A stretch of DNA of 64,000 nt. Source: Planctomycetota bacterium (GTDB lineage: Bacteria; Planctomycetota; B15-G4; SIAN01). Each line of letters begins with the position of its first letter. Positions within the stretch are counted from its first letter, which is position 1. The position numbers were made by a program, and so were the translations under genes. The stretch lies in NCBI GenBank assembly GCA_031409275.1, contig JANNXA010000055.1, positions 128,001 through 192,000 of the forward strand, given 5' to 3'. The notes beneath the pieces were generated by a model that had not been told where the DNA came from, did no database searches, and saw only the letters and a program-made list of their open reading frames with translations. Positions 36,245 through 42,159 of this stretch are shown here, one piece after another.

Positions 36245-36420
36245 GCGACGCGCTCGATCGCCGTTTGCGCCCCACGGCGGGCGTCGCTCGTTTGATCGGC
36301 GAGGCGCTGTTCGACCTGCTGCTCCTGGTGCCGAGAGTGCTGCTGGCGATGCTGTTCTGCACGAGCCGCCAACGCTCGATTGCTGACCTCGTGCGCGCGA
36401 AAGGACCTCATGCCCCGTAA
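36241..36420 (+). CDS. Possible 59-aa small membrane protein
   Basis: GTG overlaps the upstream stop (GTGA) and its own stop overlaps the next start; hydrophobic core LIGEALFDLLLLVPRVLLAMLFC. Confidence 0.45.
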   Translation: MSDALDRRLRPTAGVARLIGEALFDLLLLVPRVLLAMLFCTSRQRSIADLVRAKGPHAP

Positions 36421-37573
36421 GACGCGCATCCTCCACGACAACGACGAGTACCTCTTCGTCGAAGCCCCCGGTGACCCGCTCGGCCCGGCGCTGCAGGTCT
36501 TCGCGCGCACCGACAATGAACGCGCCGTTCCTGCCGGCCGCGCCCCCACGCACCAGACCGAGCACGGCCTGTGGATCCAGATCGCTCGCTTCGACGGCCT
36601 GGAACTCGGGATCGCCCCGGATAGCCCGGACGGGCTCGGCGAGCGCGTCAAGACGATGCTGCCGCGCTACGTCGAAGTGCGCGCCACGCGAATGGCGCAG
36701 GCCAAGCACCCGATGTGGTGGATCGTCAGCGAAGGACACGCGCTGCACGGGCTCCATCCCGCGCAGCCGGCCGGCGCACTGTTCAAGCTTTGGAGCGATG
36801 AAGCGCGCGCGCGCGCCGTGGTGGCGGAGCTCGGTGTCGAGGGCGCCGTGCAGACCACCGGACACCTGCGCGAGTTCCTCGAACTGCGCGCCGAGGAGGG
36901 TTACGCGGGCGCGCTCCTCGATGACGAGGAGCTGATCTTCTTCTGCCTCGACGAGCAGGCGAAGCTGCAGTTCCTGCGCCTCGCGCCACGCGCCGGCGAT
37001 GACGAGGAGGCGGCCGGTGTGGCGACCCATCTCCTCGGCGAAAACGGCCGTTTCGCGCTCTACGAGGGCGACGAGAAGCTCGAACCGCTGTCCGACCCGG
37101 ATGGCTGGGATCGCCTGCTGGCTCGCCTCTACGGCGAGCTGCCGTTCTACGGCTACGTGCCGGGCTGGCGCTGCTTCGCCCTGCGACTCGACGGCGCGTG
37201 GGTGACCCGCCTCGATGCGGAGAGCGAGTTCAAGCAACCGCTCGTCGCGCTGTTCCACGATCCGGCGACCGCGGACGACTACCGCTCGCGTCACGGGCTC
37301 GCGCGCGCCACGTTGGAGCGGGTGACGGACATCGTCGCGCTGGTCCGCCACGCGCAGGAACAGGGACAGCTCGTTTCACTGCAACCGGAAGACCATCGGG
37401 TGCGCGGTGGACCGCTCTGGCTCGACCGCGACGGCAAGCTGCTGCTGCTCGGCTACTGCGGAATCTGGTCGTCGCGCGATGGAGTCGCCTTCGAGCGCGT
37501 CGCCGAAGAGGAGCTTCCCACCACGAGCCCCGACGACGCCGAAGTCGACGATCAGTCGTCCGGCATCACGTAG
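36410..37573 (+). CDS. Hypothetical cytoplasmic protein, possibly with an internally duplicated domain
   Basis: ATG 36410 after AAGGA; normal amino-acid composition over 387 aa; no recognised family. Confidence 0.75.
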   Translation: MPRKTRILHDNDEYLFVEAPGDPLGPALQVFARTDNERAVPAGRAPTHQTEHGLWIQIARFDGLELGIAPDSPDGLGERVKTMLPRYVEVRATRMAQAKHPMWWIVSEGHALHGLHPAQPAGALFKLWSDEARARAVVAELGVEGAVQTTGHLREFLELRAEEGYAGALLDDEELIFFCLDEQAKLQFLRLAPRAGDDEEAAGVATHLLGENGRFALYEGDEKLEPLSDPDGWDRLLARLYGELPFYGYVPGWRCFALRLDGAWVTRLDAESEFKQPLVALFHDPATADDYRSRHGLARATLERVTDIVALVRHAQEQGQLVSLQPEDHRVRGGPLWLDRDGKLLLLGYCGIWSSRDGVAFERVAEEELPTTSPDDAEVDDQSSGIT

Positions 37574-38310
37574 GAGCGGACCGCGCCATCGTCCGATCGC
37601 GATCCCGCGAGGAAAGTGCCGAGCACGTTGCAGCCAGCGTTGCGCAGCAGCTCGAGCGCGCGGGTCGATTGGTCGCGCGGAGTCTTCTCCAGGCGCACCA
37701 CATAGAGCAATCCATCCACGCGCGCGCCCAACGTGGCGGCGTCAGCGAACGGGAGCGCCGGCGGCGTGTCGAACAGGATCCACTGGTAGTCGGCCTTGAG
37801 CGCGCCGATCAGGTCGCTCATGCGCGAGCTGCCGAGGAGTTCCGAGGAATTTCGCACGGCGCGACCGGCCGGCAGGACCGAAAGCCCCGGGATCGAGGTC
37901 GTCGAGATCACCTTCTCGAGCGGCACGAAGTCGAGCATCAGGTCGGCGAGACCCGGCTCGCGCGGGATCCCGAACAGCTGCGCCTGAGCCGGCGACCGCA
38001 GGTCCGCGTCGATCACCAGCACGCGCGCGTCGGGCAATTCGCACAGCGCGGCGGCAAGGTTGGCCAACGTGATCGACTTGCCTTCACCCTTGATCGCCGA
38101 GGTGACGGCGAGCGCGCGCGGCTGGCCGCCCGTGTTGAGCGCGACGAGGTTGGTGCGAAACGACCGATACTGCTCGGCAACGCCGCTCTGCGGCTCGTGG
38201 CAGACGACGACGCGCGGATCGATGGTGCGATCCACCAGGATCAGCAGCTCGTCGGACGGCCCGCCGATCGAGTTGCTGCGTTTCGAAGCGGGGGTTGCTG
38301 GATCGGCCAT
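37552..38310 (-). CDS. CpsD/CapB family (BY) tyrosine kinase, stand-alone
   Basis: AEQYRSFRTN, Walker A GEGKS, A' VIDADLR, Walker B FDTPP. Confidence 0.9.
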   Translation of the reverse strand: MADPATPASKRSNSIGGPSDELLILVDRTIDPRVVVCHEPQSGVAEQYRSFRTNLVALNTGGQPRALAVTSAIKGEGKSITLANLAAALCELPDARVLVIDADLRSPAQAQLFGIPREPGLADLMLDFVPLEKVISTTSIPGLSVLPAGRAVRNSSELLGSSRMSDLIGALKADYQWILFDTPPALPFADAATLGARVDGLLYVVRLEKTPRDQSTRALELLRNAGCNVLGTFLAGSRSDDGAVRSYVMPDD

Positions 38311-38521
38311 GGGAGATCTTTCGGTTCGCGAGCGGGGCCGGCGTGAATCGAAGCGGGAAACATAGCGCGGGCGGCGTCGAAGCCTGCCGCCGCACCGTTA
38401 CACTTCCCGTCTCGCATCAGAGGACCGGGCGGCGGCTCAAGACGCCGGGGCCTTCCCTCCGATCGACGACTCGGAATGGCGGCACGCCACCGACGCCCGG
38501 CCCAAGAGGAGCACTGCTGCT

Positions 38522-39382
38522 TTGCCGCAACCGCTGAGTCGACGCCTCGCCGGGCTGTTCCGCAGCAAGGCCGACCTCACGAGCGTGAAGGCGCTCGAGA
38601 AGGCCGGCGTGCGCAGCGTGAACGTGCTCGACCTGCGCCGTCTCGAGCAGATCGTCGGTGACGCGATGGAGAGCGCGCTGCACGAGGCGCTGGTCGCGGG
38701 CGGCTCCGCGGAGCACGCAGCGACCGGAGCGCAGCTCGAATTCCTGCGCCGCCTCGGCCTCGAAGGACGTCTCGCCGAGCGCACCGGAGAACTTGACGCC
38801 GAACGCGCCGAGCTCGCCGGCAGCCTCGAGAAACTGAACACCGTCCTTGACCAGAGCAAGGCGGAACTCGCGCAGCACAAGGCGGAACAGCGCCGCGGCG
38901 CGCTCGACGATCTGCGCGCGCGGCTCGACTTGTTGCTGGATGAAACGTTCGCGCGCTTCGTGGCGCTGCAGGAGGAGGGGCTCGCGCTGACGTCGAGTCG
39001 ACCGCCGCTGCGCGCCGCGCTCCTCGCACTCCTCGAAGGCGCGCTCCTCGCGGGCGGTGGCACCGTCGCTGCCGTAGAGGACAGTGCACACGTCGATCGG
39101 CTCGAACGGCGCGTGAAGAAGCTGCACGTGCAGCTCCTCGAAACGCAGGAGCTGCTGGCGCGCACGCGCGAAGAGCAGGAGGCGCAAGTGGCGGCCACGG
39201 CGCGCGCGGCGCGCGACGGCCGCACCGGAGTCGCGGCCATCACCGCTCCATCGAGTGACCACTCCGACCGCAAAGCGCTGATGCGCGAGATTTTCGCTCA
39301 CAACCTCGAACTGCGTCGCACGCTCGGTGACCCCGACGCCGCGACGCGCCCCGTCCAACGCACCGATCCGGAGACACGATGA
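38522..39382 (+). CDS. Hypothetical coiled-coil protein coupled to the actin-like gene
   Basis: TTG start 10 nt after GAGGAG; heptad-rich segments; ATGA overlap with the next gene. Confidence 0.8.
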   Translation: MPQPLSRRLAGLFRSKADLTSVKALEKAGVRSVNVLDLRRLEQIVGDAMESALHEALVAGGSAEHAATGAQLEFLRRLGLEGRLAERTGELDAERAELAGSLEKLNTVLDQSKAELAQHKAEQRRGALDDLRARLDLLLDETFARFVALQEEGLALTSSRPPLRAALLALLEGALLAGGGTVAAVEDSAHVDRLERRVKKLHVQLLETQELLARTREEQEAQVAATARAARDGRTGVAAITAPSSDHSDRKALMREIFAHNLELRRTLGDPDAATRPVQRTDPETR

Positions 39383-40458
39383 ATGCTTCCACCGGAACCC
39401 CGTCCCGTTCGCGCCCTGCCACGCCGAAGGGAACCCTCTACCTCGGCATGGATCTCGGGACCTCTCGCACCTCCATCGCCACCAGCACTGGCGTGCGGGA
39501 GACGGTGGCAAGCTACGTCGGCTACCCCAAGGACGTGGTGTCGCGAAAGGCATTGAAGAAGGACGTGCTCTTCGGCGACGACGCGCTGGCCAATCGCCTC
39601 GCGCTCAACCTCTATCGCCCGCTGGCCGGCGGCGTGATCCAGCACAGCGACGGCGCGGCCGATAGCGCCGAGGCGAAGGCCTACCTCAAGGCGGCTCAGG
39701 ACCTGATCCGCCACGCGGTCGGGTTGGCGCGACCGGAATCCGACGAACTCGTCTACGCCGTGATCGGCTGCCCGGCGCAGTGCTCGTTGCGCAACAAGGC
39801 GGCGATCCTCGAGGCGGCGCGACCCGTCGTCGACTCGGTGATGATCGTCTCGGAGCCCTTCAGCGTCGCCTACGGCATCGACCAGCTCACCGACTGCCTC
39901 GTCATCGACATCGGCGCCGGCACCACCGACCTCTGCCGCATGCGCGGCGCGATGCCGACCGCAGAGGACCAGCTCACCAACGTCTTCGCCGGCGACCACG
40001 TCGACAAGAAGCTCGAGGAGCTCCTGAAGAAGAAGTGCGTCGGCGCGGCCTTCACGATCCACGCGATCAAGGACCTGAAGGAGCGCTTCTCCACGGTCAG
40101 CGACATCCACGAGCCGGTCTACTTCGAGGTGCCGGTGAGCGGCAAGCCGACCCGCTTCGAGGTCGGTGCCGAGCTGCGCGAAGCGTGCCGCTCGATCGTT
40201 CCGCCGATGGTCGACGCCATCCACCAGCTCATCGCCAGCTACGATCCCGACTTCCAGAGCCGCCTGAAGAACCACGTGCTGCTCGGCGGTGGCGGCAGTC
40301 AGATGGGTGGCTTGCGGGAGATCCTCGAATCGGAGATGAAGTCGCGCCTCGGCGAGGGGCGCGTGACACGCGTCGAAGAGCCGACCTACGGCGGCGCCAA
40401 TGGCGCCCTCAAGATCGCGCATGACATGCCGGCGGAGTTCTGGGAGAAACTCTCCTGA
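39379..40458 (+). CDS. MamK-like bacterial actin
   Basis: GMDLGTSRT, SEPFSVAYG, IDIGAGTTD, LLGGGGS actin-fold motifs; MamK-type VGYPKDVV and GAL.IA..MP.EFW..L C-terminus. Confidence 0.9.
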   Translation: MNASTGTPSRSRPATPKGTLYLGMDLGTSRTSIATSTGVRETVASYVGYPKDVVSRKALKKDVLFGDDALANRLALNLYRPLAGGVIQHSDGAADSAEAKAYLKAAQDLIRHAVGLARPESDELVYAVIGCPAQCSLRNKAAILEAARPVVDSVMIVSEPFSVAYGIDQLTDCLVIDIGAGTTDLCRMRGAMPTAEDQLTNVFAGDHVDKKLEELLKKKCVGAAFTIHAIKDLKERFSTVSDIHEPVYFEVPVSGKPTRFEVGAELREACRSIVPPMVDAIHQLIASYDPDFQSRLKNHVLLGGGGSQMGGLREILESEMKSRLGEGRVTRVEEPTYGGANGALKIAHDMPAEFWEKLS

Positions 40459-40502
40459 GCTGCAGCCGACCCGGCCACCACTGATCGCGAGGACATGTCG
40501 CC

Positions 40503-41408
40503 ATTCCGCCGCTGCTGAAGGCCCTGCGCCCCCATCAATGGACGAAGAACCTCGCGGTCTTCGTCGGCATCCTCTTCGCCCGGAAGCTCGGCGATCCGGC
40601 GGTGCTGCTTCCCGTGGCGCTGCTGTTCTGCGCCTTCTGTCTCGCGGCGAGCTGCATCTACCTGATCAACGACATCGCCGACCGCGAGGAAGACGCCAAG
40701 CACCCGGTCAAGCGCATGCGGCCGATCGCGTCGGGCGCGCTGTCCGTCGGAAGTGCGCGCGTCGCCGCGGTGGTGGTTGCCGGGCTCGCGCTGGCGCTGG
40801 TGTGGTTCCTGCCGACGGACGTCCGACTCACGCCGTGGAAGCTGCGCCCCGGCCCATTGGTGCTGTCGGCCTACCTCGGATTGAACCTCGCCTACACGTC
40901 GCTGCTGAAGCGCGTCGCCATCGCCGACGTCACCTGCGTTGCGCTCGGCTTCCTGATCCGCGTCGTCAGCGGGCCGAAGGTGGCGGGCCTCGAAGTCTCG
41001 TCGTGGCTGATCCTGTGCACCTTCTTCGGTGCGCTCTTCCTCGCGCTGGCGAAGCGCCGCGGCGAACTGCTCGTCACGCAGACCAGCGGCGGCGGTCGCT
41101 CGGTGCTGGAGCAATACTCGGCGCAGGCGCTCGACACGCTGGTGGCGATGTCCGGGACGGCGACCGTGATCTGCTACTCGATCTACACCGTCTCGGCCGA
41201 GACGATCGCGAAGTTCCACACCAGCGACCTGCTCTACACCATCCCGTTCGTCTTCTACGGGCTTGGTCGCTACCTGCTGCTGCTCTACCGCCGCCAACGG
41301 GGCGAAGACCCGGCGGCGGTGCTCTTCACGGATCGCGGCATGTTGGTCGCGATCGTCGGCTGGCTCGCCACGTCGGCCGTCGTCTTGAGCCTGCCGCACA
41401 CGCCCTGA
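40503..41408 (+). CDS. UbiA family prenyltransferase (decaprenyl-phosphate phosphoribosyltransferase-like)
   Basis: LRPHQWTKN, YLINDIADREED..HPVKRMRPIASG, KRRGEL, GEDP; the conserved N-terminus requires a start upstream of 40602 (ATT 40503 or CTG 40512). Confidence 0.9.
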   Translation: MPPLLKALRPHQWTKNLAVFVGILFARKLGDPAVLLPVALLFCAFCLAASCIYLINDIADREEDAKHPVKRMRPIASGALSVGSARVAAVVVAGLALALVWFLPTDVRLTPWKLRPGPLVLSAYLGLNLAYTSLLKRVAIADVTCVALGFLIRVVSGPKVAGLEVSSWLILCTFFGALFLALAKRRGELLVTQTSGGGRSVLEQYSAQALDTLVAMSGTATVICYSIYTVSAETIAKFHTSDLLYTIPFVFYGLGRYLLLLYRRQRGEDPAAVLFTDRGMLVAIVGWLATSAVVLSLPHTP

Positions 41409-41418
41409 GCGACCGCCG

Positions 41419-41474
41419 CTTCGCGTCGGCCTCCTTCGCGACGGCCTCCTTCGCGACGGCCTCCGTCGTGACGG
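41419..41474. repeat. 15-bp tandem repeat (about 3.7 copies)
   Basis: CTTCGCGTCGGCCTC-CTTCGCGACGGCCTC-CTTCGCGACGGCCTC-CGTCGTGACGG between convergent genes. Confidence 0.85.
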
Positions 41475-41475
41475 T

Positions 41476-42159
41476 TCAGCGAGAGGGTCGTCGCGGCGGC
41501 TCACGGACCGCCGGCGCCAACCGCAGCGCCTTCACCAGCTGAAGGATCAGCACGTCGGCGACGCGATCGATCGGCGGCACACCCCCGAGCAGTTCGGCCA
41601 TCGACGTCATCACGCCCGGCGCAAAGCCGCACGGCGAGATCAGCGCAAAGTCACCAAGATCGGGAGCCACATTGAGCGCGATGCCGTGCCAGGTGACATG
41701 GCGGCGTACGGCGACGCCGATCGACGCGACTTTCCGCTCGCCGACCCACGCACCGGTCGCCCCGTCGCGACGCTCGCCGGCTAGTCCGAAGGCGGCGAGA
41801 GTCGCGAGCAGTGCCGCCTCGAGCGCGCGCAGGTAGTCGCGCACGCCGAGTTCGAGGTCCGCGAGCGAGACGATCGGGTAGGCGACGAGCTGCCCGGGGC
41901 CGTGCCAGGTCGCCTGGCCGCCGCGCTCGATCGCGACCACTGGAATCGGCAGCGTCGGCGGCATCGGCGGGCTCGCGCGCCCGAGCGTCACCACTCGCTC
42001 ATGTTCGCCGACGAGGAGCGTGTCGCAGCCGCCAGCGATCCGCTCGGCCAGGAGCTCCTGCTGCAAGGCGTGGACGTCGCGGTACGAGCCGACGCTCTCC
42101 GGAGAGAAAGGGAGCACCCGCGTGCGCGCGAACCACGGCTCGACCGTCGGCACCGCCAC
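41476..42159 (-). CDS. lipB: Octanoyltransferase
   Basis: EHERVVTLG, RGGQATWHGPGQLVAYPI, KVASIG, HGIALNV, ISPCG. Confidence 0.95.
   Translation of the reverse strand: MAVPTVEPWFARTRVLPFSPESVGSYRDVHALQQELLAERIAGGCDTLLVGEHERVVTLGRASPPMPPTLPIPVVAIERGGQATWHGPGQLVAYPIVSLADLELGVRDYLRALEAALLATLAAFGLAGERRDGATGAWVGERKVASIGVAVRRHVTWHGIALNVAPDLGDFALISPCGFAPGVMTSMAELLGGVPPIDRVADVLILQLVKALRLAPAVREPPRRPSR

Follow-up and report, generated by a model that had tools for sequence, protein, structure and literature searches.

Our analysis reports on an undescribed family of modular coiled-coil proteins that are encoded directly upstream of MamK-type actins in the Planctomycetota. The member studied here lies at positions 38522..39382 (+) of the window, the 64,000-nucleotide stretch of contig JANNXA010000055.1 that was analyzed, and comprises 286 residues from a TTG start, arranged as a head, a coiled coil and a C-terminal module. 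Because its linkage to the actin runs in both directions far beyond chance, and because it matches no known family, its standing as a dedicated genomic partner of the MamK-type actin is well supported. We propose that this modular protein is a dimeric adaptor, likely with its tail in a groove of the actin and its head turned to a cargo or regulator, and we give this reading an even chance of being correct; all of the evidence for it is genomic.

The reading frame is preceded by a Shine-Dalgarno sequence, GAGGAG (38506..38511, +), with the TTG start 10 nt downstream, a start position that is shared by the partner homologs. It ends in an ATGA stop/start overlap with the actin gene (39379..39382, +), for which GGAG stands at 39370-39373. 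Its base composition is as for a coding frame (GC3 0.83 vs GC2 0.48), and we take the gene to be real. The start and overlap signals and the coiled coils seen by the earlier note are all confirmed, and the four motifs that it quoted were found at residues 21-37, 39-45, 191-201 and 250-266. The absence of a transmembrane helix was likewise borne out: the most hydrophobic 19-mer (residues 167-185, Ala/Leu-rich) is borderline at a Kyte-Doolittle value of 1.81, but it includes a Glu residue, and values above 1.6 occur in just 2 of the 94 family members, so that it is not a conserved transmembrane segment. Translational coupling to the actin, which had also been claimed, holds for the overlap in the window but not for the family; among the 104 loci with an assignable ATG the overlap occurs in 12, while 84 have a gap of more than 20 nt. 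The overlap is shared across the genus and rare elsewhere; the adjacency of partner and actin is conserved, whereas the coupling is a local, lineage-specific feature. No sigma-70-like promoter and no intrinsic terminator were found in window positions 37400-41700, and the one metatranscriptome contig that falls inside the partner gene (244 nt, depth 3.3, 3 differences, in a data set with a word share of 0.06) is too weak a sign of its transcription. As the earlier note supposed, the family is a new one: the protein has no Pfam or NCBIfam match at E<=0.1. A homolog search recovered 555 representatives at E<=1e-3, and the named homologs and titled actin records belong to Planctomycetota or to unassigned bacteria.

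The gene that follows (39379..40458, +) encodes a MamK-type actin of 359 residues. It scores 399.6 bits against NCBIfam NF040964 (MamK), 0.4 below the cut-off of 400, and MamK is its closest relative among the solved structures in the PDB (5jyg, E 3.7e-73); against the BeeR model it reaches 197, where the cut-off is 530. The same genome holds an MreB-level match at C55:220953-222227 and an actin of the volactin family, and thus three actins in all. A MamK-like second actin beside MreB in a non-magnetotactic member of the Planctomycetota is also what the available text of the saltatorellin paper describes for Saltatorellus ferox Poly30, in which the MamK-like saltatorellin was named and found to form filaments upon expression in E. 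coli and M. gryphiswaldense (10.1101/817700). The window actin is therefore probably saltatorellin-type, a name given on this likeness. The published saltatorellin primer was found neither in 254 loci nor in sets of 151, 56 and 19 genomes.

The earlier note had made its proposal hinge on whether homologs of the coiled-coil protein consistently adjoin MamK-like genes, and they do so in both directions. Among the 47 loci that represent every actin match better than 1e-100 across 61 genomes, a homolog lies directly upstream of the actin in 20 of 20 and then in 26 of 27 more, and the upstream ORF of the single exception still ends in the tail motif. An independent scan placed the C-module upstream of the actin in 77 of the best 80 loci; both proportions (46/47 and 77/80) are far beyond chance, in locus sets that are biased towards the best matches and hand-picked exceptions and in related genomes that are not independent. 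Across 301 genomes of the phylum the family occurs in 126, the MamK/BeeR-type actin profile in 111 and volactin in 108. In the reverse direction, 129 of the 150 family matches listed (217 in total) have a same-strand actin no more than 3 kb downstream, as counted against 134 of the 145 MamK-type and 118 of the 135 volactin matches listed, the weakest having been dropped. At least 81 of these 134 MamK-type actins have a listed family match upstream, and inspection of 24 of the other 53 revealed one in 6 and none in 18; in 7 of the 18 the upstream ORF ends in what looks by eye like a tail motif, and several lack a partner altogether. Some deep branches are without a linked partner, and the family gene is unlinked to the actin or divergent from it in L110, L113, L118, L119 and L123. 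At L118:3726-4820, L123:4038-5030 and L119:2080-3411 the C-module forms the end of proteins that carry hydrophobic segments in their N-terminal part and are not linked to the actin; these are possible membrane anchors of the filament. Two tandem family genes precede one MamK-type actin in L154, G173:C944 and G220:C2.

Profiles and conservation divide the partner into segments, all on the forward strand. The N-terminal head (approximately residues 14-78; 38561..38755) follows the pattern T..L...G...V.V[LI]...helix-helix. The two coiled-coil stretches seen by the earlier note correspond to heptads at residues 82-118 (38765..38875), a predicted coiled coil, and at residues 186-218 (39077..39175), where LERRxxKL...L forms the first half of the C-terminal module; both are helical in the AlphaFold model, which was built with 94 homologs and is almost all helical at a mean pLDDT of 80.9. 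The linker that follows (39176..39268) carries GxASIYxxVQGL in most family members, with Tyr, Phe or His at the Tyr position in 71 of 76 C-modules and Tyr itself in 60. In the window protein the motif has decayed, and it is missing in P0003, P0004, P0005 and P0010; the window protein and its closest relatives have thus lost the loop motif, whereas they have kept the terminal helix. Since the conserved SIY..VQGL motif has been lost, the partner function of the window copy may be reduced.

The terminal helix (residues 250-267; 39269..39322, LxxIFxxNxxL) tracks the MamK-type actin and is the best-conserved segment of the partner (0.56 vs 0.28-0.53 elsewhere), with Asn261 invariant and Phe258 near-invariant. 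It is only weakly amphipathic, with a hydrophobic moment of 0.29 against a median of 0.23 for the protein. With the ORF ends of this genome as background, a profile of this helix put 7 of 12 divergent upstream ORFs, chosen by hand, beyond the 99th percentile, and none of 21 volactin partners. By analogy with the partners of other actins, considered below, it is the likely candidate for the actin-binding element; the pattern M254/I257/N261/L264 would be compatible with an Asn-containing dimerization zipper as well. A WH2 tail, a helix followed by LKKT that this segment brings to mind, is unsupported: when 76 C-modules were matched to families at E<=5, WH2 was absent from the best 25 of 108, and the invariant Asn is no feature of WH2. 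The ORF upstream of the actin at L092:2161-3039 (-) appears by eye to carry three tandem tails of the type GGGMLAGLVxENAxLR, an arrangement reminiscent of tandem actin-binding nucleators.

Searches with predicted structures gave no clear match to a known fold. The full partner model gave no match in the PDB at E<=0.001 and the head model gave none; VIA-align reached a best Z of 7.0 (rmsd 2.2, 57 aligned), over residues 34-90 only and with generic helical hairpins. PDB sequence searches with the family, C-module and head profiles returned generic coiled-coil matches or nothing, and the best ESM Atlas match (0.87) is unnamed and serves as a lead only. Prediction of the full-length complex of actin and partner, made without folded controls, gave 0.13 and 0.27 against a mark of 0.32, scores that speak neither for nor against contact.

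Comparison of the ORFs upstream of 143 distinct MamK-type actins, from a biased set of loci, shows that the partner is modular, with an exchangeable head and a constant tail. The head together with the C-module is found in 68, a GGDEF domain with the C-module in 33, the C-module only in 18, the head only in 2 and the terminal helix only in 9; the remaining 13 have no recognizable partner, although a motif resembling the tail can be seen by eye in two of them, L092 and L128. The GGDEF heads match the Pfam GGDEF family, but the catalytic motif is not intact in any of the sequences inspected, and these domains are read as dead rather than as active diguanylate cyclases. At least 16 of the 33 have an RxSD site before the position of the GGDEF motif. 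In a FastTree tree of the actins the GGDEF-headed forms are confined to one branch of 45 actins, and the head swap thus represents about one event. In P0145 and P0148 the C-module is fused to BY-kinase-like domains. The PilZ-like look of L106 was met by no Pfam match.

On the other side of the partner lies a divergent gene (37552..38310, -) for a stand-alone BY-kinase-like P-loop ATPase of the CpsD/CapB type (TIGR01007 124.8 vs a cut-off of 108.05). It carries Walker A, A' and B motifs (GEGKS, VIDADLR, ILFDTPP) and one C-terminal Tyr, with no tyrosine cluster, and there is no membrane modulator among the flanking genes scanned. A gene of this kind is located within approximately 3 kb upstream in 52 of the 65 loci with head and C-module that have enough flank, divergently in 30 and on the same strand in 22, and in none of 28 GGDEF-headed and 32 other loci. 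This distribution is largely one phylogenetic contrast, since the kinase gene was lost and the head exchanged on the same branch, in approximately one event. Next to the kinase gene, and across the genus and family, stands a 397-residue ORF without a Pfam or NCBIfam match (36380-37573, +). Right behind the actin lies a UbiA-family prenyltransferase of the PRK12324 type (40500-41408, +), which is syntenic within the family only and whose frame stays open for approximately 34 further codons ahead of the listed GTG, with no obvious ATG among them.

The head is found at a second actin operon of this genome. A head profile identified, at E 4e-14, a paralog of 264 residues (G000:C22:97245-98051) whose gene immediately precedes that of a 359-residue actin (G000:C22:98127-99203); this actin belongs to the volactin family (PF25216, 284.3 bits vs a cut-off of 35) and has approximately 24% identity to the window actin over 122 residues, at E 0.98; the operon spans G000:C22:97260-99206 (L061:5261-7207). 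Instead of the BY-kinase-like gene, this paralog is adjoined by an ORF that is histidine-kinase-like by sequence. Of 55 head-only matches, 43 lie upstream of volactins, and forms with the C-module lie upstream of MamK-type actins in 82 of 95 cases and of volactins in 0 of 95. The tails divide in the same manner: the MamK-type pattern is found in 0 of 25 volactin partners, while a volactin-type tail, ESN...L..LK.L, is found in 17 of these 25 and in 0 of 130 MamK-type partners. Because the patterns were written after the sequences had been viewed, and because the tail had been one of the criteria in choosing the MamK-type partners, the zero counts are the only ones that escape circularity. Two small ORFs upstream of BeeR-like actins (L230:3299-3913 and L235:3596-3994) end in a third tail, [IV]xFD[DN][IL]xxI[IV]DxL, which suggests that the BeeR-like subfamily may also have a cognate partner. 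The two-gene cytoskeletal system imagined in the earlier note is accordingly too narrow, given the BY-kinase-like third neighbor, the swappable head and a paralog that serves a second actin family.

Variants of these arrangements were also seen. Tandem volactin-family genes follow one head-type partner in L076, L077, L082 and L083. In family f58 the MamK-type actins have no upstream partner, and the volactin-family actins (L209-L220) have acidic, disordered-looking N-terminal extensions in open frames of 670-940 residues; a natural fusion of actin and partner was considered for these long frames and rejected, as they carry the acidic extensions and not the head.

The closest precedents for the proposed adaptor are ParR and arcadin-2, which bind ParM and crenactin, respectively, via a peptide in the hydrophobic groove of the actin; in the available text, arcadin-2 ends in a conserved helix that follows a variable linker, and it depolymerizes crenactin through competition for the groove (PMC5173319). 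The window partner is similarly co-encoded with its actin and has a short conserved helix at its C-terminus, preceded by a variable region. It differs in that no sequence similarity to them was found, it is without an RHH head, it is chromosomal and its binding is suggested by analogy; the family further differs in its swappable heads, one of which is common to two actin families. MamJ-like genes lie directly upstream of mamK (PMC10653835), and the partner resembles MamJ and Mad10/20/23/25/26 in its place directly upstream of a MamK-type actin; in the Mad system, with MamK and Mad28, coiled-coil proteins also work with two different actins per cell, as far as the passages available describe it (PMC10653835, PMC12748827, PMC12713370). 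The locus here is set apart from these systems by the absence of a magnetosome cluster; no magnetosome model is among the top NCBIfam families for 94 family members, and no Mad or MamJ name is among the partner matches, most of which are unnamed. Volactin of Haloferax volcanii (PF25216) is of the same family as this genome's second actin, which is preceded by the partner paralog; it is a different actin family from that of the window, and the H. volcanii passages mention no co-encoded partner (PMC10869688). BeeR of Verrucomicrobiota is described in the available text as an actin related to MamK, without a known function, from PVC bacteria that are not magnetotactic (PMC11929497), to which the window actin is alike in being MamK-related in such a bacterium; the BeeR-like actins of this phylum have other upstream genes, two of them with the different tail of L230 and L235.

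Taken as a dimeric adaptor, the partner would dimerize through its heptad stretches, dock residues 250-267 in the hydrophobic groove of the actin as ParR and arcadin-2 do, and tie the filament by its head to a cargo or regulator. The input to the head may come from the BY-kinase-like ATPase in the window and from c-di-GMP in the GGDEF-headed clade, and the pair may serve in shaping the cell, in its division or in positioning within it, rather than in magnetosome alignment. We favor this reading because the helix is constant and varies only with the actin subfamily, and because ParR and arcadin-2 bind by such a peptide. Of the filament adaptor that the earlier note proposed, the dedicated actin partner stands, on the linkage and the absence of a known family, while physical contact with the filament is suggested by analogy, and the evidence fits the proposed nucleation, bundling or anchoring as it fits sequestration or depolymerization.

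The same features admit other readings. An almost entirely helical protein with long heptad runs could be a self-assembling scaffold like crescentin or Mad25/Mad26, touching actin only via other proteins and using the terminal helix as a zipper in which the invariant Asn may occupy an 'a' position; in the coiled-coil Mad network of D. magneticus RS-1, Mad10 showed no MamK interaction and Mad28 interacted only with Mad25, in the text available (PMC12748827). We nevertheless consider a scaffold unlikely, as it leaves unexplained both the switching of the tail with the actin subfamily and the short, tail-only ORFs before actins. Those tail-only partners (9/143) would sit well with a negative regulator, which binds actin through its tail to sequester monomers or depolymerize filaments and is switched by its head; arcadin-2 has this layout and activity (PMC5173319, in part), and a c-di-GMP-type head would suit a switch. 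The long coiled coils, the swappable heads and the N-terminal hydrophobic segments seen by eye in L118 and L123 favor tethering instead, and the tandem tail-like repeats of L092 resemble a nucleator, so that we likewise rate this reading as rather unlikely.

It is improbable that the partner is mainly an activator or substrate of the BY-kinase-like ATPase, in a phosphorylation switch for actin. The bias of the kinase gene towards head-bearing loci (52/65 vs 0/28 and 0/32), its fusion to C-modules in P0145 and P0148 and a candidate substrate Tyr in 60 of 76 C-modules all point towards such a role; yet the window protein has lost the Tyr and keeps the kinase, the GGDEF-headed forms have the Tyr but no kinase, the loss and the head swap are approximately one event on one branch, the volactin-linked paralog adjoins a histidine-kinase-like ORF, and the GEGKS-type neighbor itself has only one C-terminal Tyr. 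The order of adaptor then actin, the basic strand-helix-helix head and the C-terminal helix recall ParR, and a DNA-binding adaptor of the ParR/AlfB type would make the pair a DNA segregation system. The head of ParR is an RHH domain. Alignment of the head here with an eight-sequence RHH profile in hhalign gave a probability of 1%, RHH_1 had no match to the gene in 21 genomes, and a single head out of 74 matched an RHH family, at E 0.015; the locus lies on the chromosome and is syntenic, and the actin has no match below 1e-10 among 72,556 plasmids, which leaves this reading very improbable. We give hardly any credence to a MamJ- or Mad-like protein of the magnetosome chain, for which the closeness of the actin to MamK among solved structures and the position of MamJ-like genes upstream of mamK (PMC10653835, in part) would speak. 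The actin is adjoined by housekeeping-type, non-magnetosome genes, and the MamK/BeeR-type profile is found in as many as 111 of 301 genomes of the phylum. Magnetosome clusters need both MamB and MamM; the assembly, 92.9% complete, has one cation-efflux gene, unlinked and on another contig.

The kind of actin is already in print, and a co-encoded actin adaptor is known as a general idea. The partner family was not found in Pfam, NCBIfam, the PDB or the literature searched, a search without subscription journals and bioRxiv supplements. The main text of the saltatorellin paper does not contain 'coiled', 'upstream' or 'operon' and hence describes no partner, while its supplements could list the gene (10.1101/817700); the accessible literature that joins Saltatorellus and cytoskeleton does not contain 'coiled', and no saltatorellin regulator is named in the searchable papers.

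We tentatively extend the adaptor reading to a broader proposal, which we regard as doubtful: that the two-actin cytoskeleton of deep-branching planctomycetes is organized by one modular adaptor family whose terminal helix is an actin-selecting address tag. One tag would address MamK-type actins, another volactin-type and perhaps a third BeeR-type; the shared head would link or co-locate both filament systems, and its exchange for a dead GGDEF or a kinase-like domain would place the filament under the control of c-di-GMP or phosphorylation. Planctomycetes of this kind are reported to lack FtsZ (PMC11032199), and saltatorellin has been proposed as the driver of their amoeba-like shape change, in the available text (10.1101/817700). 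The family provides a concrete candidate for a saltatorellin partner, with an 18-residue peptide and two candidate inputs, the BY-kinase-like ATPase and c-di-GMP. If the tails do select the actin, they would show how one bacterium separates several actin systems, and may explain the origin of the coiled-coil and two-actin machinery in deep-branching magnetotactic bacteria. The address tags, if true, would be a bacterial counterpart of the eukaryotic toolkits of actin-binding motifs and a candidate engine of Saltatorellus shape-shifting.
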